A stretch of DNA of 25,982 nucleotides from positions 1 to 25,982 of the forward strand of contig CACXDV010000148.1 of NCBI GenBank assembly GCA_902766585.1. Reading direction: 5' to 3'. Positions 8,249-18,674 of this stretch are shown here, in pieces. Positions within the stretch are counted from its first letter, which is position 1, and the number at the start of each line of letters is the position of its first letter. The DNA is from an uncultured Ruminococcus sp. (GTDB lineage Bacteria > Bacillota > Clostridia > Oscillospirales > Acutalibacteraceae). The translations under genes were made by a program, and so were the position numbers. The notes beneath the pieces were generated by a model. It worked only from the letters and a program-made list of their open reading frames with translations. It was not told the origin of the DNA and did not search any database.

Positions 8249-8956
8249 GTGCAGGAAAATTTCGTAGAATTCAATAATGTATATAAACGCTATAAAATGG
8301 GTGAAGTAACTATAAATGCTGCTAACGGCGTAAGCTTCTCTATAAATGAAGGTGAATTTGCCGTTGTTGTTGGACTGAGCGGCGCCGGAAAAACTACCGT
8401 TCTGAATATTCTCGGAGGTATTGACAGCTGTGACGAGGGAAAAATCATCGTCGGCGGAAAGGATATCAGCCACCTTAACAGCAAGGAGCTTGCTTCCTAC
8501 AGAAGATATGATATCGGTTTTGTTTTTCAGTTCTATAACCTTATACCCAACCTTACCGCAAAAGAAAATGTAGAGCTTGCAACTCAGATTTGCAGGGATC
8601 ATATGGATGCCTCAGCTGCCCTCGATTCGGTGGGACTTCACGACAGAAAAAACAATTTCCCCGCTCAGCTTTCCGGCGGTGAACAGCAGCGTGTTTCAAT
8701 TGCCCGCGCTCTTGCCAAAAAGCCAAAGCTCCTTCTTTGTGATGAGCCGACCGGTGCTCTCGATTACAGTACCGGTAAGAATATACTTAAACTCCTACAG
8801 ACAAAATGCAAGGAGGACGGTATGACAGTTGTACTTATCACCCATAACTCTGCTATCACTCCTATGGCTGACCGCGTTATCAGCATGAGAAGCGGTAAGG
8901 TCATCAGTAATGTAGTAAATGAAGCTCCTATCCCTATTGAAAAAATAGAATGGTAA
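8249..8956 (+). CDS. ABC transporter ATP-binding protein (LolD/MacB-like)
   Basis: Walker [36 protein letters not shown]-loop ITHN; GTG start with GAGG RBS. Confidence 0.95.
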
Positions 8957-8980
8957 CTCTTCATACAGGACAGGTGTTAT

Positions 8981-11900
8981 ATGAAAGCTCTTACTAAAAA
9001 TATTTTCAGAGAAATTAAACATTCCAAATCAAGATTTCTTTCCATATTTGCCATTATCGCACTCAGTACCGGATTTTTCTCGGGAATAAAGTCCTCAAGT
9101 CCAAGTATGATAACGACCAGCTATGATTATCTGCAAAAAAATAATCTCATGGATATCCGTATCGTTTCAACTGCCGGCTTTGATGATGATGATATCAGGG
9201 CTATTAAAAATATGGATGAAACCGTTGATATTTTAGCCGGATACTGCTCGGACTTAATTGTAACAGATAATAATATCGACTCTGTTGTAAGGGTATATTC
9301 CTTACCGGAAAAAACTGATACTGCTGACAAATTGATAAATGAAACTATTCTGGTTGAAGGCAGATATCCCTCCGCTGACGGCGAATGTGTAATTGACAGC
9401 TATTATTTCCGTTCTAAGGGAATGAAGCTGGGGCATAAGATCAGGTTTAACGAACAAACCGATAATATAAAAACAAAGGAATTTATTAAACAGCTTGAGT
9501 ATAAGGTCGTCGGTGTAATTGATACTCCGCTTTATCTTACTTATCAAAGAGGCAATACTACTGTAGGAGACGGTAAAATTTCTTTCTATATCATGCTTCA
9601 GCCCGATCAGTTCATCACTGAACGTTATACAAATGCTTATGTCACTACAAAGGCTTCGGAATTATACTACGATTCTTTTTCGGATGAATACAAAAACGAG
9701 ATCAAAAAAGAAAAAGATGATTTTCAGAAGCTGTCTGACGAAAGAATAGATGTCTTTCGCAATACTACTCTTGCTGATGCGAAAAAAGAGCTTTCCGATG
9801 CGGAAGCGGAATTCAATGAAAAAAAGAAGGAAGCAGAGGATACAATTTCCGACGGTGAAAAGGAGCTTTATGACGGTCAACAGGAAATGGCTGATAAGCT
9901 TAGTGAAGGCATAAAAAAGCTTAATGACGGCGAAAAGGAACTGGCAGACGGAAAAGAACAGCTTGAAGAAGGCAAAAAGAAATACAATGACGGTATTGAA
10001 GAAGGAAAGGCTAAACTCACGGAAGGTCAGGCAAAATATGACGAAGGTCTGGCTCAGTACAACAAGGGCAAGCTTCAATTCGATACCGAAATATCAAAGG
10101 CTCAGTCTCAGCTTGATAAGGCTCAAGGAGAATTTGATACACAGTATAAGCTGTTCTATGAAACAACTAAGCCTCAGGCAGAAACCAAACTGAATCTGCT
10201 CAGAAGCGCTATTGAGCTGTGCAATAGTATCATTGAAGAAACAGAACGGAAAATAAATGACTTTGAGCTCATAACAGGCTCAGACACTGAACTTACCGCA
10301 CTATATGATAAGCTTGATGAATATAAAAGCAAGGTCAATGAATATGCAAAGCAATATGACAGCGGTATGGATCAGCTTGAAGAGGGCGAAAAAAAGCTTA
10401 ATGACGCAAAGGCTCAGCTTGAAGAAGCAAACAAAGCCTTTGAACAAAAAAAAGCAGAAGGTATGGCACAGCTCAATGATGCTAAAATTCAGCTCGATTC
10501 CGCAAAATCTCAGCTTGAAACAGGTAAGCTTGAATATGATACTGCCCTTGTTCAGGGTATGCTTGAACTTCAGCAGGCTGAAAATAAACTGACTGAGGGC
10601 GAAAAGGAACTCGAAAAGGGTAAAGAAGAGCTTCTTACCGAAAAAGCCTCCGCTATGCTTAAAATGAAGTCGGCAAGAGAAAAGCTCGCCGCTGGTAAAG
10701 CTGAGGCAAGAACTCAGCTTGCGGATGCAGAAGCAAAGCTTGCTGATGCAAGAGAAAATATTTCAAATCTTGATGATGCAAGATGGATAATCTTTGACCG
10801 TACAGATAATACAGGTTTTTCGGGATTGATAGAGGATGCTCTCCGCGTTGATAAGGTTGCAGCAGTATTGCCTGTTTTCTTCCTTCTTATTGCGGCTCTC
10901 GTATGTCTGACAACAATGACACGAATGGTCGAAGAACGGCGTACTGAGATAGGTACCCTTAAGGCTCTCGGCTACAGCAATTTCAAGATAATTTCCAAGT
11001 ATCTGATCTATTCTGCCCTTGCCTCCGTCTCGGGAAGTATTGCCGGAGCTGTGATAGGTATTTCATCACTCCCCTTTATTATCGTAGATACATATTCTAT
11101 GCTCTATACCCTTCCGCCGACTATCCTTTCTATTGACTACCAAAGCTTTATCTTCTCGGCGGCAACAGGAATACTTTGTACCTGCGTTGTTTCTGTTATC
11201 ACCTGTATGGGTGAGCTTAAACAGAATCCGGCTTCTCTTATGCGTCCGAAGGCTCCAAAGCCAGGTAAACGTATCCTTCTTGAATATATTACCCCTCTTT
11301 GGGCTGTTTTCAACTTTATTACAAAGGTGACCTTCAGAAATCTTTTCAGATATAAGTCAAGGCTTCTTATGACCGTTATCGGTATAGCAGGATGTACTGC
11401 CCTTATTATCGGAGGATTGGGACTTAAGGATTCGTTAAGCGTGATAGCACCTCTGCAATATGATGAATTAACTGTCTATGATGAGATCTATTCTCTTAAA
11501 AGCGGAGGTACAGTTCAGGAAAAAGCTTATTTGATGTCTAAGTTCCATGCAGATAAACGCTTCGCTGAAACTGCGCTGGTTGACCAGAATAACATTTCTA
11601 TACAGAATACTCAGAACGAAAAAAAATTCAACTATTATTATATCGTCGCTTCTGATATAAATGATTTTGAAAAGTTTTTCCACCTCCGTGACCGGGTAAC
11701 ACATGAGAAAAAAACTCTGACCGATAATGGTATTATTATTTCCGAACGCATTTCTCAGCTTATCGGTGCCGGTAAAGGCGAAAAAGCCATTATCAATATA
11801 GACGATACTCCTTATACTGTCGATATAACTGATATTGCAGAAAACTACGCCGGAAACTATATCTGCATGACTCCGGCATACTATGAAAAAATAACCGGCA

Positions 11901-12457
11901 AAACAAATAAATATCATATCGTCTATACTCAGCTGACTGAAGACGGCAAACAAAATGAAAAGGCTATTGCAGATGAATGGATGGAAGATGATGATATCCT
12001 TACAGTTTTTCTTCTTAAAGAACAGCTCGAAGGAATCATTTCAACACTTGATTCACTTAATATTATTGTATTTGTTGTCGTTCTCTGCGCTGCGATGCTG
12101 GCAATGGTCGTTCTGTATAACCTTACAAACATCAATATTTCTGAAAGAATACGCGAAATCGCTACAATAAAGGTTCTCGGCTTCTATGACCTCGAAACAG
12201 CAAGCTATATCTACAGGGAAAATATTTTCCTTACAGTTGCAGGAGCATTGGCAGGCTTACCGCTCGGCACCCTGTTTATCAGCTTTATTATTGATGCTCT
12301 TCAGATGGAAATTATTATGTTCCCGAAGTATGTCACCATTATGAGCTATCTCATCGGCTTTGCACTGACCGTTGTTTTCTCACTGTTTGTAAACTTCATC
12401 ATGTTCTTCCGAATGAAAAAGGTCAGCATGGTCGAATCACTAAAATCAATAGAATAA
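8981..12457 (+). CDS. FtsX/MacB-like ABC permease, internally duplicated, with long extracellular coiled-coil insertion
   Basis: N-terminal TM (RFLSIFAIIALSTGFFSG); EERRTEIGTLKALGYS and ERIREIATIKVLGFY FtsX motifs in two halves; C-terminal MVESLKSIE. Confidence 0.92.
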   Translation: MKALTKNIFREIKHSKSRFLSIFAIIALSTGFFSGIKSSSPSMITTSYDYLQKNNLMDIRIVSTAGFDDDDIRAIKNMDETVDILAGYCSDLIVTDNNIDSVVRVYSLPEKTDTADKLINETILVEGRYPSADGECVIDSYYFRSKGMKLGHKIRFNEQTDNIKTKEFIKQLEYKVVGVIDTPLYLTYQRGNTTVGDGKISFYIMLQPDQFITERYTNAYVTTKASELYYDSFSDEYKNEIKKEKDDFQKLSDERIDVFRNTTLADAKKELSDAEAEFNEKKKEAEDTISDGEKELYDGQQEMADKLSEGIKKLNDGEKELADGKEQLEEGKKKYNDGIEEGKAKLTEGQAKYDEGLAQYNKGKLQFDTEISKAQSQLDKAQGEFDTQYKLFYETTKPQAETKLNLLRSAIELCNSIIEETERKINDFELITGSDTELTALYDKLDEYKSKVNEYAKQYDSGMDQLEEGEKKLNDAKAQLEEANKAFEQKKAEGMAQLNDAKIQLDSAKSQLETGKLEYDTALVQGMLELQQAENKLTEGEKELEKGKEELLTEKASAMLKMKSAREKLAAGKAEARTQLADAEAKLADARENISNLDDARWIIFDRTDNTGFSGLIEDALRVDKVAAVLPVFFLLIAALVCLTTMTRMVEERRTEIGTLKALGYSNFKIISKYLIYSALASVSGSIAGAVIGISSLPFIIVDTYSMLYTLPPTILSIDYQSFIFSAATGILCTCVVSVITCMGELKQNPASLMRPKAPKPGKRILLEYITPLWAVFNFITKVTFRNLFRYKSRLLMTVIGIAGCTALIIGGLGLKDSLSVIAPLQYDELTVYDEIYSLKSGGTVQEKAYLMSKFHADKRFAETALVDQNNISIQNTQNEKKFNYYYIVASDINDFEKFFHLRDRVTHEKKTLTDNGIIISERISQLIGAGKGEKAIINIDDTPYTVDITDIAENYAGNYICMTPAYYEKITGKTNKYHIVYTQLTEDGKQNEKAIADEWMEDDDILTVFLLKEQLEGIISTLDSLNIIVFVVVLCAAMLAMVVLYNLTNINISERIREIATIKVLGFYDLETASYIYRENIFLTVAGALAGLPLGTLFISFIIDALQMEIIMFPKYVTIMSYLIGFALTVVFSLFVNFIMFFRMKKVSMVESLKSIE
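9770..10770 (+). repeat. Protein-level heptad repeats (xxxLxxG/A type) forming a coiled-coil stalk
   Basis: KKLNDGEKELADGKEQLEEGKKKYNDG, KAKLTEGQAKYDEG, QLEEGEKKLNDAKAQLEEA, NKLTEGEKELEKG, TQLADAEAKLADA; about 330 aa. Confidence 0.85.
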
Positions 12458-13555: not shown

Positions 13556-13584
13556 ATTATATTATTATTCTCCTTATTCGTCAA
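13556..13584 (-). promoter_or_regulatory. Near-consensus sigmaA promoter for ddh, -35 inside the last codons of the HAD gene
   Basis: TTGACG (13584-13579), 17 bp, TATAAT (13561-13556). Confidence 0.75.
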
Positions 13585-14224
13585 GAAGTTCATAATAGCT
13601 TTTTATAAATTTATCTGCGGCTGACTTTATTCTATCAAGATATTTGTGATTCATGCTATCATATACCGCAACCGTTGACATACCTGCTCCCGCTGCGCTT
13701 TCTATGCCCTCTATGATATCCTCATATACGGTACAGTTTTCAGGTCTGACTCCGAGTTTTTCCGCTGTATAAAGATATATAGCCGGATTGCTCTTATTAA
13801 AGCCTACCTCGGAAGTATAACAGATACAGTCAAAAATTCCTTCAAGTCCGTTATTCGCAAGACACGGCATCAGAAGATACGGATTATTGGAGGTAGCCAT
13901 TCCGAGAAGATATCCGCGGTTTTTGAGCTGTCTGAGGTATTCAGCTGCTCCCGGCTTAAATCGTACATTATTTGCATATTCATCATGCGCCATATCAAGC
14001 CATACCTGCATTATCTCCTCAACACTTTCATTCAGTCCGTATGTATTTTTTGTATATGCCGCTGCTGTTTCAAAAAACATACCGCGCATTTTATCTGTAT
14101 ATTCCTCTGTGACAGGTATATTTCTCTCTGTAAGAAAATCCTTGTCTACCTTCGACCATACATACATTGATTCTGCAAGCGTTCCGTCAAAATCAAAAAT
14201 TGCAGCCTTCCTATCACTTATCAT
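13574..14224 (-). CDS. HAD-superfamily IA phosphatase (beta-PGM / phosphoglycolate-phosphatase-like)
   Basis: Motif I FDFDGTL, motif II ATSN, motif III K(SNP), motif IV YEDIIEGIESA; GGAGG RBS. Confidence 0.9.
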   Translation of the reverse strand: MISDRKAAIFDFDGTLAESMYVWSKVDKDFLTERNIPVTEEYTDKMRGMFFETAAAYTKNTYGLNESVEEIMQVWLDMAHDEYANNVRFKPGAAEYLRQLKNRGYLLGMATSNNPYLLMPCLANNGLEGIFDCICYTSEVGFNKSNPAIYLYTAEKLGVRPENCTVYEDIIEGIESAAGAGMSTVAVYDSMNHKYLDRIKSAADKFIKSYYELLDE

Positions 14225-14242: not shown

Positions 14243-15274
14243 TTATTTCAGATATCCGCCAACTACTTTCTTATAATCATTATAATCCATATCCCACAGA
14301 TCAGAAAGCGTATCGCTTCCCCTTCTGTCAGGGATATCATAATTTTTCTTAATGCGCTCCCCTACAAAAAGTGAAACCTTTCTTGCTCCTCTTGTATTCA
14401 GATGAACCCCGCCGTCACGGGTATCCTTTGTCCAATCAAGACCGACAGAGGCTTCTTCCTTTTGTAAATCAAGAAGAGGCACCTTGATTTGCTCCGCATA
14501 TTTATTCAAAGCCTGATAGTTTTTCTTGCTGCCTGTCAATGTATTGGGAACGGAAACAAGTATCAGACTGATACCGTTTTCTTCGCATATGCTTTTGATC
14601 CTGTTTACATAGTATTTTGTAATCGGATTTATCCTGCCATTAAGATAATCCTCCCCTGCTCCGTCCGGCAAATCAAGCTTTTCGCTTTCATAAGGCTCTG
14701 AAACAGATATTATCATCTGTCCCTTGGAGGGCGATTTCCATGAATATTCGATCGGTGAAAACCACTGCTTTGGTCCGGTATACTTCCATCTGTTGTGGTA
14801 ACGTATAATCGGAATTCCTGTTTCGACCTCATCTTGAAAATTCTTATCAAAAAGCTTTTTCGTAGTGTATGGAGCAAATACCACATCAGTCTCAAGCACT
14901 ACTACCTTCGGCTTCTGTGTCTTAAGAAATTCCGTAAGGTTATACTCTATCTCTGCCATGCTCGATGCGCCCTTAGCACAGACAAAGGATGTCATGCCAT
15001 ACTCATGCCAAAGCTCCAACGGCGAAAAGGCTGAATAGGCTTCGCTGTTTCCCATAAACACTACATCAAGAGTATTCTCCGGCTCGGCATAAAAAGCATG
15101 GGCATTCTGGTCGTACATTCCATTATCCTGATCGTTGTATTTAGGATAATACATACACTGTAACATATAAAGCAATATACCGAGGATCAGGAAAAATCCG
15201 AGTATTCTGACTCCCTTTAAAGCATATGTCAGAATACCCTTATTATTTTTTTCTTTATTTTCCTTCTTTTCCAT
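14243..15274 (-). CDS. Membrane-anchored SGNH-family protein (DltD/AlgJ/PatB-like extracytoplasmic acyltransferase)
   Basis: Basic N-terminus plus one TM; block I VFMGNSEAY (Ser nucleophile); block V RDGGVHLNTRGA. Confidence 0.82.
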   Translation of the reverse strand: MEKKENKEKNNKGILTYALKGVRILGFFLILGILLYMLQCMYYPKYNDQDNGMYDQNAHAFYAEPENTLDVVFMGNSEAYSAFSPLELWHEYGMTSFVCAKGASSMAEIEYNLTEFLKTQKPKVVVLETDVVFAPYTTKKLFDKNFQDEVETGIPIIRYHNRWKYTGPKQWFSPIEYSWKSPSKGQMIISVSEPYESEKLDLPDGAGEDYLNGRINPITKYYVNRIKSICEENGISLILVSVPNTLTGSKKNYQALNKYAEQIKVPLLDLQKEEASVGLDWTKDTRDGGVHLNTRGARKVSLFVGERIKKNYDIPDRRGSDTLSDLWDMDYNDYKKVVGGYLK

Positions 15275-15282
15275 TTTATCAC

Positions 15283-16872
15283 CTAAAACTGTGCGTAAAT
15301 ATTATCGACTTCACCGTAATCGGCACCATATGCGCCAAGAATGATAACCGCTATGATAAGCGCCATAAGTACCGGCCATTTTATATATATCCTCCCTGTT
15401 GAAACAGCGCCGAGGACATCCTTTTTGCCTTCCTTAAGTATACCAACGATCAGGAGAGTGAGTATTCCCAAGCCTATGATTATAAAATCCTGCCAGTCGG
15501 TACCAAGCGCAAAGAGCTGACCGTTTACTATATCATTGAGATCCTGAAATGCAAATATCTTACCGATTATTGCTCCGAAATCAGTGACGGAATCCACTCT
15601 GAACAATGCCATGCCAAAGCATACAAGAATTATTGTCCTGAATACGCGAAGACCTTCGGCAATGCCTGATTTACGATCAAGCTTAAGCTTATCCGAAAGC
15701 TTTATCCACAGAGGCTCTGTAACCATTCCTATCAGCATTATCAGGAAATAATATAATCCGTATACAACATACTTTATATCCGCGCCATGCCACAGACCTG
15801 TGCCAAGCCATACTACCAAAAGCGCGCTGGCTGTCGGAACAATTGAAGCCCAGAATTTTGTCATGCTCTTTGTACAAATCTTAGTCAATGCTCCGAATGG
15901 CTTTGAAAGCGATACAGGATAGAATACATAATCCTTGAACCATGTTCCCAGACTGATATGCCATCTTCTCCAGAATTCACTAACCGTCTTTGAGAAGAAT
16001 GGCTGGCGGAAGTTTTCGGACAGCTCCACGCCAAATAAACGCGCTGTTCCTGACATTATATCTATACAGCCGGAAAAATCGGTATAAAGCTGTACGGTAT
16101 ACAGTATAACAGCAACCGCTATCAGCGTTCCGCTGTATCTCGGATAATCATTGAAAACAGTAGATGCCATATATGATGCGCGGTCGGAAATTACTGTTTT
16201 CTTGAATAGTCCCCAGAGTATGAGTACGGCAGCTTTTGTAAAGCGTTCGCTGCTGTAACCCTTGCCCGCCGTCAGCTGAGGCATGAGATGGTCATAGCGC
16301 CCGATTGGGCCCTCAGTCATCTGCGGAAAAAAGCTCAGAAACAATGCCAGCTTCGCAAAATTCTTCTCTGCCTTGTATTTTCCTCTGTATGTGTCAACAA
16401 TATAACCTATCGACTGTAATGTGTAATATGATATGCCCAGCGGAAGAGCAAATGATAACGGTTTGACTTCCGCTGAAAAACCGAATGGTCTCATAAACGC
16501 TGCAAGCATATATGTAAAAAAGCCGGTATATTTCAGCACAAGCAGCATACCGAGATTTACAAGAACAGCGGATAGTACGACCATCTTTTTCTGCTTTGTA
16601 TAATATGCCTTCAGCTTCTTTTTTTCATCCTTCGGAAGCTCTTTTTTTTCAGTATTGAATCTCTCCTGAAGTGATGTCAATACCTTTCCTGTAAAAAATG
16701 TGCAAACTGCCGCAGCAAACAAAAATACCGCAAGCTGCAGATTTTCAAACAGATAAAATGCGGTGCCGGACAGAAGCAGTACAGTCCATCTTGCTTTCTT
16801 CGGAAATATGAGATATACAACATACGTTGCCAGAGCAAAACACAAGAAATAAAGATAACTGTAAAAATTCAA
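15283..16872 (-). CDS. MBOAT family O-acyltransferase (DltB/AlgI/PatA-like) with C-terminal NIYAQF motif
   Basis: LPLGISYYTLQSIGY, FFPQMTEGPI, ENFRQPFFSKTVSEFWRRWHISLGTWFKDYVFYP, catalytic GLWHGA; TTG start with GGAGGAG RBS overlapping the carrier gene stop. Confidence 0.93.
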   Translation of the reverse strand: MNFYSYLYFLCFALATYVVYLIFPKKARWTVLLLSGTAFYLFENLQLAVFLFAAAVCTFFTGKVLTSLQERFNTEKKELPKDEKKKLKAYYTKQKKMVVLSAVLVNLGMLLVLKYTGFFTYMLAAFMRPFGFSAEVKPLSFALPLGISYYTLQSIGYIVDTYRGKYKAEKNFAKLALFLSFFPQMTEGPIGRYDHLMPQLTAGKGYSSERFTKAAVLILWGLFKKTVISDRASYMASTVFNDYPRYSGTLIAVAVILYTVQLYTDFSGCIDIMSGTARLFGVELSENFRQPFFSKTVSEFWRRWHISLGTWFKDYVFYPVSLSKPFGALTKICTKSMTKFWASIVPTASALLVVWLGTGLWHGADIKYVVYGLYYFLIMLIGMVTEPLWIKLSDKLKLDRKSGIAEGLRVFRTIILVCFGMALFRVDSVTDFGAIIGKIFAFQDLNDIVNGQLFALGTDWQDFIIIGLGILTLLIVGILKEGKKDVLGAVSTGRIYIKWPVLMALIIAVIILGAYGADYGEVDNIYAQF

Positions 16873-16886
16873 GCAAAAACTCCTCC

Positions 16887-17111
16887 TTAGTCGCTGAGTC
16901 TTTCTATAAGCTCATAGATTGCTTTTGCAGAATTGAAGTTCTCGGGAACAAGATCAAGCGGAGTTATCTCAATATCATATTCATCCGAAATTGCAGTAAC
17001 AAGACGTATAATTGTCATAGAATCAAGTATTCCTGAATCTACAAGCTCAGTCTCATTTTCAAAATCAACACCGGGTTTTACCTCTTCAAGAATTTCTAAA
17101 AGCTTTTCCAT
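16887..17111 (-). CDS. Acyl/aminoacyl carrier protein (DltC-like)
   Basis: 74 aa, acidic; LVDSGILDSMTII phosphopantetheine Ser motif; ITPLDLVPENFNS. Confidence 0.92.
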   Translation of the reverse strand: MEKLLEILEEVKPGVDFENETELVDSGILDSMTIIRLVTAISDEYDIEITPLDLVPENFNSAKAIYELIERLSD

Positions 17112-17165: not shown

Positions 17166-18674
17166 TTATTGAGGACAGTATTCCTTTTTTAAAAGCGCAC
17201 GGTCGATTTTTCCGTTGCTGTTATGCGGCATAGCAGCAAGCTTCTTATAAACCGCAGGCATCATATAATCGGGAACTCGCTTTTTGAGCGCTGATAAAAG
17301 CTCATCCTCTGAAAGCGAGCCTTCATAAACAATTATTATCTTATCATTTATTTTATCGAAAAGACAAGCACAGCTTTTCAGCCCCTCTTCCGCAAGAGCA
17401 GCGTTTTCTATTTCACCAAGCTCTATGCGGTAGCCCATGTGCTTTATCTGAAAATCCTTTCTTCCGCAGTAGAGCAATTCTCCGCGGTCATTGTACTTTA
17501 CAATGTCGCCTGTTTTATATACTATTTCCGGATATGCGCTTTGCAGCGGGTTAAGAACAAATGCCTCCGCTGTCTTTTCCGGATTATTATAATATCCAGC
17601 AGCAACAAACGGACCTCCGACATATAGCTCTCCCTCTTCTCCGGGCGCACATTCCTTTCCGTCCTCGGAAATGACCGCAACTGAGCAGTTATCACAGGCA
17701 GCTCCTATGGGCAGCGCTTCGCTGTCCTCAAAGCTTCGGTCAACTGTATAATAAGTACAAATATCGGTGGTCTCCGTGGGACCGAACAGATTTGCATACT
17801 TTACATCCGGATAATAGCTTATCCAGTAATTCAGCTTCTTTACAGGCATTACCTCTCCCGCAAAAAGAACTGTGCGGAGATATTCGGGCTTCATATATTT
17901 GAAAAGATCCATATTTGCCGCTATACAAAGTGCCGACGGAACCCAGTAAATAGTATTGACCTTTTTTTCATTCATATACTGAACAAGCTTTACAGGAAAT
18001 GCAAAATACTTCTTCGGTATTATTGCAAGCTGTGCCCCCGTCCTGAGTGAAGAATAAAAATCAGTTACCGACATACTGAAATAAAATGGAGTCTGGCTTC
18101 CGAATATAGTTTCACTTGTAATATCAAATGTATTTATAAACCAATCGGTATAGGAAAGTACATTTCCATGAGTTACTGCCGTTCCCTTCGGTACTCCTGT
18201 AGAACCAGAGGTAAACAGGCAATACAATAAATCAGTTGATGTCATTTTGCATTGAATTTCAGATAAAAGCTTATCATCTGCCTCAGCTGAAAGCGCTTCT
18301 GCAGAAGTAAGACTTAATCCTTCAAAACCGATATCATTCAGACTTTCTGAAAGTTCCTCCTCATATATTACCGCAAATGGCTTTACCGCTGCGAAAATTG
18401 ACTTAATTCTCTCGACCGGCATTGCTGTATCTATTACAACATAAAAATTTCCGCTGTATGCAGTTCCGAGCATTGCTGCCGCGCAAACCGGAGTCTTTTT
18501 CAGATAAAGCGCAACAGCGCCTTTTCTTTTTCCTGAAACGGCAAGAGACGTACCTATCCTTTTTGCACTGTCTCTCAGTTCGGTATAGCTTAGAGAGCTT
18601 ATCTCATCATTTACTGCTGTCTTATCGGGAAATGTATTTACTGTTTTTTCAAACGACTGTATTATTGTTTTCAT
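17166..18674 (-). CDS. Stand-alone NRPS-type adenylation enzyme (DltA-like, non-canonical pocket)
   Basis: YCLFTSGSTGVPKG, LFGPTETT, GELYVGG, YKTGD, GRKDFQIKHMGYRIELGEIE, NSNGKIDR; A4 motif reads FYFSMSV rather than FDxS. Confidence 0.92.
   Translation of the reverse strand: MKTIIQSFEKTVNTFPDKTAVNDEISSLSYTELRDSAKRIGTSLAVSGKRKGAVALYLKKTPVCAAAMLGTAYSGNFYVVIDTAMPVERIKSIFAAVKPFAVIYEEELSESLNDIGFEGLSLTSAEALSAEADDKLLSEIQCKMTSTDLLYCLFTSGSTGVPKGTAVTHGNVLSYTDWFINTFDITSETIFGSQTPFYFSMSVTDFYSSLRTGAQLAIIPKKYFAFPVKLVQYMNEKKVNTIYWVPSALCIAANMDLFKYMKPEYLRTVLFAGEVMPVKKLNYWISYYPDVKYANLFGPTETTDICTYYTVDRSFEDSEALPIGAACDNCSVAVISEDGKECAPGEEGELYVGGPFVAAGYYNNPEKTAEAFVLNPLQSAYPEIVYKTGDIVKYNDRGELLYCGRKDFQIKHMGYRIELGEIENAALAEEGLKSCACLFDKINDKIIIVYEGSLSEDELLSALKKRVPDYMMPAVYKKLAAMPHNSNGKIDRALLKKEYCPQ

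Follow-up and report, generated by a model that had tools for sequence, protein, structure and literature searches.

Gram-positive bacteria adjust their surface charge, their resistance to antimicrobial peptides and their interaction with the host, and the standard example is the D-alanylation of teichoic acids. [quoted passage not shown] The ligase described here shares these features, and is encoded on the minus strand at positions 17166..18674 of the window (the whole 25,982-nucleotide stretch of DNA that was analysed) as a stand-alone adenylation enzyme, or carrier-protein ligase, of 502 residues. It differs from DltA in the specificity code, which is SMTWLALDIK instead of DLMSLCTVCK, so that Asp197 and Cys269 of DltA are missing, Trp is present at position 278 and Asp occupies the site of Val301. 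The locus also differs from the Dlt operon in its gene order, A-C-B-D', and in an MBOAT protein of about 530 residues with a fused Tyr shuttle hexapeptide; no separate DltX was seen in an analysis that included no dedicated small-ORF search.

Asn occupies position 235 (GrsA numbering, as for all code positions below) in DhbE, whereas in VinN an Asp at the equivalent position reads a β-amine, and the β-alanine code has V235, D236 and D331. The ligase lacks the Asp present at the 235-equivalent position of VinN-type β-amino-acid ligases (PDB 7DQ5, 5JJQ), whose match to it (E about 1e-44 to 1e-47) is weaker than that of DltA or NRPS domains. Asp235 is conserved in the A domains that activate α-amino acids, and position 330 belongs to the ten residues of the specificity code (PMC12283262, PMC11355689); in DltA complexes, it is the backbone carbonyl at position 330 that hydrogen-bonds the substrate amino group (PMC8972799, PMC9338922). 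Asp235 is likewise replaced in A domains for α-keto, α-hydroxy and aryl acids (e.g. StsA-A and DhbE), which fits the missing α-amino group (PMC11355689), but the combination of Ser235 and Asp330 is absent from the codes that were found, and the present locus has no KR domain or assembly line and would have envelope acylation as its output. In the NRPS A domains for serine (DVWHLSLVDK), homoserine (DLKNVGSDVK) and diaminobutyrate (DVWQMIGDDK), Asp330 and/or Asp331 accompanies a side-chain hydroxyl or amine: Asp331 is found in the published Ser code, Asp330 in the homoserine code, and Asp330/331 in one diaminobutyrate code that is specific for a β-hydroxylated residue (PMC12283262). All of these domains keep Asp235 and lie inside multi-domain synthetases, whereas the ligase here stands alone and lacks it; a sister enzyme with the code DNLWLALVDK is identical to the NRPS serine code at 6 of 10 positions. 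[quoted passage not shown] The literature search returned no match for four β-alanine codes and no paper describing a DltA-like variant with Ser235 and Asp330.

The pocket of the ligase was located from the translation together with alignments. The A4 motif FYFSMSVTD (residues 197–205; 18060..18086, minus strand, as for all features that follow) places Ser200 at the site of the α-amino-binding Asp (GrsA 235, Bacillus cereus DltA 197), with Met201 at position 236 and Thr204 at position 239. The Ser200 codon is AGT (18077-18075), two base changes from GAT. Trp244, in the segment IYWVPSA (17931..17951), takes position 278, and the segment LFAGEV (residues 270–275; 17850..17867) supplies Leu270 at position 299 and, at position 301, Ala272 in place of the enantiomer-selecting Cys269 of B. 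cereus DltA. The A5 motif NLFGPTETTDIC (residues 295–306; 17757..17792) contains Leu296 at position 322, Asp304 (codon GAT, 17765-17763) at position 330 and Ile305 at position 331, and the code is completed by the catalytic Lys489 (position 517) of the A10 motif PHNSNGKIDR (17199..17228). In HMMER alignments to LgrA, Ser200 falls under the Asp of FD(G/I)S, and in the MAFFT alignment Ser200, Ala272 and Asp304 fall on Asp197, Cys269 and Val301 of DltA; the B. cereus numbering (3FCC/3DHV; D197, C269, T297, V301) was obtained by counting residues in an alignment with a canonical clostridial DltA. An earlier note on this DNA had read the A4 sequence FYFSMSV, the FAGE segment and the Asp of TETTD in the same way, and codons and translation agree with it; its manual alignment of the code was also correct, and the choice it left between Asp and Ile resolves to Asp330 and Ile331.

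The remaining core motifs are intact, namely TSGSTGVPKG (155–164), YKTGD (386–390), GRKDFQIKHMGYRIELGEIE (404–423) and NGKIDR with Lys489. The ligase matches TIGR01733 with 333.5 bits, above the cut-off of 317.4, and PF00501 with 209 bits; this model score and motifs A3, A5, A7, A8 and the A10 Lys identify an ANL enzyme of the NRPS-type amino acid adenylation class. DltA crystal structures match it over its full length with E values of about 1e-59 to 1e-61. The sequence thus supports an intact ligase that is not decaying, as the earlier note had argued from the catalytic Lys and the ATP motifs.

By NCBIfam cut-offs, the ligase is outside DltA. It scores 307.8 and 311.8 bits on the two DltA models, whose cut-offs are 559.85 (TIGR01734) and 476 (NF003417), whereas canonical clostridial DltAs score 520–565 bits. 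It also departs from DltA at Asp197 (Ser200) and at Cys269 (Ala272), the latter being absent from some near-canonical clostridial DltAs as well (codes DLTSIVGVAK and DLSSLIGVGK), and it does not group with characterised DltAs in the tree. Trp278 marks the whole non-canonical clade (support 97 in a quick tree, 99/98 in a more careful one), outside which canonical DltA lies. With canonical DltA (code DLMSLCTVCK) as the outgroup, the ligases that carry Ser at position 235 (S type) form one clade with support of 96/97, nested in a 96/96 group in which Asp330/331 occurs alongside Asp235. We take the gene to encode a working carrier-protein ligase within an extensive radiation that is sister to DltA and has no name. 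Clostridium beijerinckii HUN142 has an S-type ligase and a near-canonical DltA of 542 bits in one genome, and databases label the S-type proteins generically or as DltA.

An Asp at position 330 or 331 is common to the S type, to a type with Val235 and to several lineages that keep Asp235 (with codes such as DNLWLCLDAK and DNLWLALVDK). Since sister types that keep Asp235 also have Asp330/331, Asp330 predates the loss of Asp235, and the phylogeny, read with the canonical DltA outgroup, shows it as inherited from an ancestor in which Asp235 was still present. What created the S type is therefore the loss of Asp235 itself, to Ser and with Met236, in a pocket that already contained an Asp suited to reading polar groups. 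The earlier note had proposed that the pocket lost the α-amino-binding Asp and gained a compensating one at the opposite wall; the loss stands, as a fixed and clade-defining feature, but the compensating gain is not supported.

Ser235 and Asp330 are unchanged in every readable homologue of three overlapping samples (120, 52 and 106). FYFSMS and GPTE..D are present in at least 119 of 120 clusters of proteins with identities as low as 54%, and in all 52 loci of the S type within a set of 80 genome loci. A further 112 loci were picked solely by the DNA pattern for QTPFYFSMS, which proved clean (3 chance matches in 115), and the downstream part was readable in 106 of these; F(A)GE is found in 105 and Asp330 in all 106, even though selection was by the A4 motif alone. 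Across the same overlapping samples Ser235, Met236, Ala301 and Asp330 are essentially invariant in S-type homologues to 46% identity. Residue 235 does not drift: the S type has only Ser there and the Val type only Val, a pattern that favours selection for a specific ligand over relaxed constraint. A shorter, 21-base pattern matched 8 of 401 genomes of the class, with a reversed control about equally frequent; one of the eight matches lacked FYFSMS, and three (G000, G139 and G165) were checked against a ligase gene. A HMMER search of 1.84 billion representatives returned solely giant multi-module NRPSs with scores summed across several domains and was uninformative for this family.

Downstream of the ligase lie the other genes of a Dlt-type pathway, none of which reaches the equivalog cut-offs for DltB, DltC or DltD. 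A DltC-like carrier protein of 74 residues with an LDSM serine (16887..17111; PF00550, 32.6 bits; below the cut-offs of the DltC models) is followed by a DltB/AlgI-like MBOAT protein of 529 residues (15283..16872; PF03062; TIGR04091 at 151.8 bits, below the cut-off of 375) that ends in NIYAQF, and by a membrane-anchored SGNH/DltD-like protein of 343 residues (14243..15274) with a weak GDSL match of 24.2 bits, below cut-off. The carrier gene is adjacent to that of the ligase in nearly every S-type locus, the MBOAT protein is present in 48 of 52 and the SGNH protein in 47 of 52, and all 47 scored S/DI-type MBOAT proteins terminate in x-[IM]-Y-x-x-F. Carriers of the cassette include C. beijerinckii, Oribacterium parvum ACB1 and Petralouisia muris. 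Among the neighbours of S-type loci are TagF-type glycerophosphotransferases, a Bce-like module that combines a two-component system (histidine kinase and response regulator) with a MacB-type ABC component, VanZ, and PPTases. No conserved substrate-making gene was found beside the cassette in the S-type loci, and the one recurring family consists of mixed ABC ATPases. An HAD-family phosphatase of 216 residues (13574..14224; PF13419, 99.7 bits) is co-directional with the cassette and outside its conserved core; among 80 loci it is shared only with the closest relative (L004), and it was rejected as a core substrate maker. It is still a weak local hint of an acid produced by dephosphorylation, for instance glycerate or glycolate. 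In five Erysipelotrichaceae loci a seryl-tRNA synthetase gene is found upstream, apparently reflecting shared synteny.

By analogy with the Dlt and PatA/PatB mechanisms, the ligase would adenylate a small carboxylic acid and thioesterify the adjacent carrier, the MBOAT protein would move the acyl group across the membrane, probably via the Tyr of its fused C-terminal hexapeptide, and the SGNH protein would place it on an envelope polymer, probably of the teichoic-acid type. Within the pocket, Trp278 keeps the available space small, and Ser235 and Asp330 would read polar groups of the substrate. Because the loss of Asp235 is fixed and clade-defining, the ligase falls outside the DltA cut-offs and an S-type ligase coexists with a near-canonical DltA in one genome, the substrate is most likely something other than an amino acid bound in the ordinary way by Asp235. 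On balance we favour a polar acid of small size that is bound without Asp235, with a hydroxy acid (such as glycerate or lactate), a β- or ω-amino acid or an amino-hydroxy acid as the leading candidates. No PanD or GadB-type (group-II) decarboxylase scored above cut-off in the five S-type genomes searched, of which two are 100% complete, and this weakens the case for β-alanine or GABA made in the cell, unless the acid is imported. For the S type as a whole, we lean somewhat towards ligases that load a non-α-amino acid, perhaps a hydroxyacyl group such as glyceroyl or else a β- or ω-aminoacyl group, onto teichoic-acid-like polymers, as one branch of a wider radiation of carrier-protein ligases, each supplying its own acyl group for export by MBOAT and SGNH proteins.

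A less likely but serious alternative is that the substrate is still a small α-amino acid (D-Ala, Gly, L-Ala or Ser) and that the cassette does the work of D-alanylation with its anchor moved to another site, the amine being held by the Asp330 side chain, by the backbone carbonyls of the Gly of GPTE and of residue 330, and by Ser235. Residue 330 lies next to the α-amine in the DltA complexes, where the contact is through the backbone, and an Asp side chain at this position might reach the amine in place of Asp235. Sister enzymes combine Asp235, Asp330 and a DltA-like Cys301 (DNLWLCLDAK), so Asp330 and an amino acid substrate are compatible. The S type is the sole stand-alone DltA-like ligase found at E <= 1e-80 in several genomes, among them G139 and G165, which are both 100% complete, and could therefore perform the usual D-alanylation there. 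The TagF-type, Bce-like and VanZ neighbours are what one would expect near an envelope system that modifies charge. On the other hand, Asp235 is described as conserved in all A domains that activate α-amino acids, the strict Ser here against the strict Val of the sister type points to different ligands and not to a redundant position, and C. beijerinckii also keeps its near-canonical DltA.

We regard it as improbable that Asp330 has no role in reading the substrate and is instead a clade-wide structural or catalytic feature, positioning for example the pantetheine arm or a neighbouring residue, so that specificity would come from Ser235, Met236, Trp278 and Ala301 alone and a plain short acyl or keto acid would be permitted. 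Asp330/331 is indeed common to types with Asp, Ser or Val at position 235 and with differing gene contexts, but between close relatives the Asp shifts from 330 to 331 (DNLWLALDVK and DNLWLALVDK), as is typical of a ligand-contacting residue, and other clade members lack it altogether (DAKWAGLGMK and DVKWMSLCNK); it would also be unfavourable to bury a carboxylate without a partner next to a hydrophobic acyl chain. Low scores on the DltA models and a source genome that is a fragmented, 76%-complete MAG might suggest a DltA paralogue in decay or without catalytic activity, or a Ser codon produced by a sequencing or assembly error. However, the catalytic motifs are intact, two bases separate the codon from GAT (as the earlier note had pointed out), and the recurrence of the same Ser and Asp, with the cassette conserved, in well over 100 species-level genomes effectively refutes this reading.

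If the substrate is indeed a non-α-amino acid, these loci would specify an ester of the cell envelope that has yet to be described, shared by well over a hundred species of gut and rumen Firmicutes. The type of enzyme suggests that the same export logic serves a different acyl group in many gut and rumen Clostridia, Erysipelotrichaceae and their relatives, and many gut Firmicutes species probably attach a group other than D-alanine. Knowing which acyl group is attached would extend the list of envelope modifications and correct the generic and DltA annotations. The pockets with Asp, Ser or Val at position 235 in a constant Asp330 background form a natural series in which to follow how adenylation enzymes switch between amino and non-amino acid substrates. 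Other branches of the radiation include Val235 ligases encoded with importers, ligases with Asp235 and Asp330 encoded with a formyltransferase, and ligases with a Lys-lined pocket.

The ligase gene of the window occupies 1509 bases of the minus strand (17166-18674) and encodes the 502-residue protein P0001, whose translation contains the complete set of adenylate-forming motifs: TSGSTGVPKG (residues 155-164), FYFSMSVTD (197-205), NLFGPTETTDIC (295-306), YKTGD (386-390), GRKDFQIKHMGYRIELGEIE (404-423) and NGKIDR, which includes Lys489. The protein scores 333.5 bits against the NCBIfam "amino acid adenylation domain" model, above the cut-off of 317.4, and fails both NCBIfam DltA models (307.8 vs 559.85 and 311.8 vs 476). 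Its similarity to solved DltA structures is full-length (3E7W, E 5.7e-61; 3FCC/3DHV, about 3e-59), and NRPS A domains match it as well as, or better than, these. Because P0001 lies below the DltA cut-offs, lacks both the Asp197 and the Cys269 of DltA and belongs to a separate clade, it stands outside the DltA family, though it probably works in a DltA-like way. Homologues sharing its serine at specificity-code position 235 (the Ser type) carry the database names "amino acid adenylation domain-containing protein", "AMP-binding protein" or DltA, the last of which is wrong; a literature search found no paper describing a Ser-type ligase. The genome that the window comes from encodes a second A domain (G000:C61:309-1742, 33% identity to P0001) in an open reading frame, 1103 residues or longer, at a contig end; this is probably an NRPS-like protein.

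The minus-strand codons at 18077-18075 (AGT, Ser200) and 17765-17763 (GAT, Asp304) are as read in the earlier note. In HMMER alignments to LgrA the serine of P0001 lines up with the aspartate in FD(G/I)S. DltA numbering was obtained by aligning a canonical clostridial DltA (L106; 564.7 bits, TIGR01734) to B. cereus DltA (3FCC/3DHV) and counting residues, which yielded D197, L198, M201, C269, T297 (the GPTE threonine) and V301. The ten code columns, read from a MAFFT alignment of 109 stand-alone ligases, hold S200, M201, T204, W244, L270, A272, L296, D304, I305 and K489 of P0001, giving the code SMTWLALDIK, as against DLMSLCTVCK in canonical DltA. The code that the earlier note had derived by hand is correct, and its ambiguity is settled as D330 and I331. 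The Asp that it had placed at the opposite wall of the pocket is present, its site being not an arbitrary wall but position 330, one of the ten specificity-code residues (PMC12283262; PMC11355689 Table 1). When complexed with D-Ala-AMP, the DltA enzymes of B. cereus and L. plantarum bind the D-alanyl amino group through Asp197/198, Gly296 or Thr297, and Val301/302 (PMC8972799; PMC9338922). In near-canonical clostridial DltAs (L086 of C. beijerinckii HUN142 and L108-L110; 520-549 bits) Val or Ile replaces the enantiomer-selecting Cys269, with the codes DLTSIVGVAK and DLSSLIGVGK.

Conservation was followed in three samples that partly overlap, so that their counts are not independent. FYFSMS is present in 120/120 of the best protein clusters (54-100% identity), GPTE..D in all but one fragment and FAGE in nearly all of them, and 52 of 80 species-level genome loci are of the Ser type. 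A further sample, picked solely by a DNA pattern for QTPFYFSMS, provided at least 115 new loci, 112 of which encode the motif; wherever the downstream part was covered, position 330 is Asp (106/106; 100 DI, 6 DT). The expected covariation of FSMS with TETTD therefore holds in one direction, FSMS always being accompanied by Asp330; the converse fails, as Asp330 also occurs with Asp235 or Val235.

This asymmetry is also seen among the sister ligases. Trp278 is common to a radiation of stand-alone enzymes that vary at the other code positions, with both Asp235 and Asp330 (DNLWLCLDAK, DNLWMCLDVK), Asp235 and Asp331 (DNLWLALVDK), Val235 and Asp330 (VM[FL]W..DIK; the Val type), or Lys239 and no Asp at 330/331 (DAKWAGLGMK, DVKWMSLCNK). 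After a quick tree, a maximum-likelihood tree of 69 rows was calculated with IQ-TREE (ultrafast bootstrap / SH-aLRT supports). All Trp278 enzymes fall in one clade (99/98) with canonical DltA outside; the Ser type (96/97) and the Val type (100/99) are each monophyletic, and the Ser type is nested in a 96/96 group whose remaining members mostly carry Asp235 with Asp330/331. The tree requires three changes for "Asp at 330/331" and three for "Asp235". If the tree is rooted on canonical DltA, the most parsimonious scenario has Asp330 in place first and Asp235 lost later, separately on the Ser-type and Val-type stems. The earlier picture of an Asp loss coupled to a compensating Asp gain is not supported, because Asp330 predates the loss on this reconstruction. 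Met236, Thr195, Tyr243 and Ile331 are common to both types, and residue 235 never varies within either, being Ser throughout the Ser type and Val throughout the Val type, which looks like selection for particular ligands and not relaxed constraint. Three genomes of one genus contain a tandem triplet of DltA-like stand-alone ligase genes (G108:C42:6719-11238; G081:C3:63930-68432; G135:C158:6422-10942), two of the ligases having the pocket codes DNLWMCLDVK and DNFWVALVDK.

In the window the ligase gene is followed by genes for a 74-residue carrier protein (16887-17111), a 529-residue MBOAT protein (15283-16872) and a 343-residue SGNH-like protein (14243-15274), a core found in 47-48 of the 52 Ser-type loci. 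The MBOAT ends in NIYAQF (15283-15303), and x-[IM]-Y-x-x-F forms the C-terminal end of all scored Ser-type MBOATs (47/47 with Ser235 and Asp330-Ile331, plus two variants; loci L004-L083), most commonly as FIYGQF or FIYAQF. This is the acyl-shuttle hexapeptide, which Dlt systems carry on a separate protein, DltX, and acetyl-CoA-using systems as a fusion; the latter are described as lacking carrier proteins (PMC12148441). The Ser-type cassette differs from both, combining the fused motif with a carrier of its own. Subsets of the Ser-type loci have TagF-type glycerophosphotransferases or PPTases near the cassette, or, immediately upstream of it, genes for a response regulator, a histidine kinase and a MacB-type ABC module that is fused, and C. 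beijerinckii has VanZ and GalU; these neighbours point to an envelope, teichoic-acid-like acceptor. The window itself encodes an ABC ATPase followed by a 1158-residue FtsX-type permease whose long extracellular region is a coiled coil (8249-12457, plus strand), and several related loci have fused MacB-type ABC transporters directly upstream of the ligase.

Carriers of the Ser type are mostly uncultured gut MAGs of Ruminococcaceae, Acutalibacteraceae, Oscillospiraceae, Lachnospiraceae, Erysipelotrichaceae and "Bacilli/Mollicutes"; cultured carriers include Clostridium beijerinckii HUN142, Oribacterium parvum ACB1 and Petralouisia muris. Ser-type contigs in bins named Bifidobacterium, Bifidobacteriaceae, Parabacteroides, Bacteroides and Olsenella (L170, L176, L193, L139 and L148) are probably mis-binned from Firmicutes and not genuine occurrences. 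HUN142 encodes both a near-canonical DltA (542 bits) and a Ser-type ligase. The Ser-type enzyme is the only stand-alone ligase at E <= 1e-80 in the 100%-complete genomes G139 and G165, and the only match at E <= 1e-60 in G004 and G005.

As to the substrate, we tentatively favor a hydroxy acid, for example glycerate or lactate. No conserved substrate-making gene was found beside the cassette in the 52 Ser-type loci. In the window a HAD-family phosphatase gene (13574-14224, minus strand) lies 18 nt downstream of the cassette in the same orientation, and its product could provide a dephosphorylated acid locally. Only the closest relative, L004 (73% identity), has this gene as well, and it lies outside the conserved system. 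An ordinary alpha-amino acid, held through Asp330, is a serious alternative, judged only slightly less likely. Published NRPS codes place Asp331 in the serine code (DVWHLSLVDK), Asp330 in that for homoserine (DLKNVGSDVK) and both in a diaminobutyrate code for a beta-hydroxylated residue (DVWQMIGDDK) (PMC12283262), so by analogy an Asp at 330/331 can read a side-chain hydroxyl or amine; the sister code DNLWLALVDK agrees with the serine code at 6/10 positions. A beta/omega-amino or amino-hydroxy acid is judged less likely than either. PanD and a GadB-type decarboxylase were not found above the cut-off in five Ser-type genomes and were found in control genomes, which makes synthesis of beta-alanine or GABA in these five cells unlikely; import is possible. 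Any other class of substrate is improbable.

The gene contexts of the sister ligases fit a polar substrate series without settling the question. For the Asp235/Asp330 type, a formyltransferase gene lies between the ligase and carrier genes, implying a substrate with a free amine. At L076:6847-13799 (also L078, L081 and L082) a DNLWLCLDAK ligase gene and a 285-residue formyltransferase gene precede the carrier gene, and the locus further holds DUF1574, MBOAT, DUF6056, DUF6020 and two GT4 glycosyltransferases; it may specify an N-formyl-aminoacyl envelope decoration. The Val235/Asp330 ligase genes L073:2760-4355, L053:6356-7957, L057:4466-6055 and L071:9776-11239 adjoin transporter genes, encoding an unclassified sodium:solute symporter at three loci and an APC amino-acid permease at one, which suggests that the acid of the Val type is imported.
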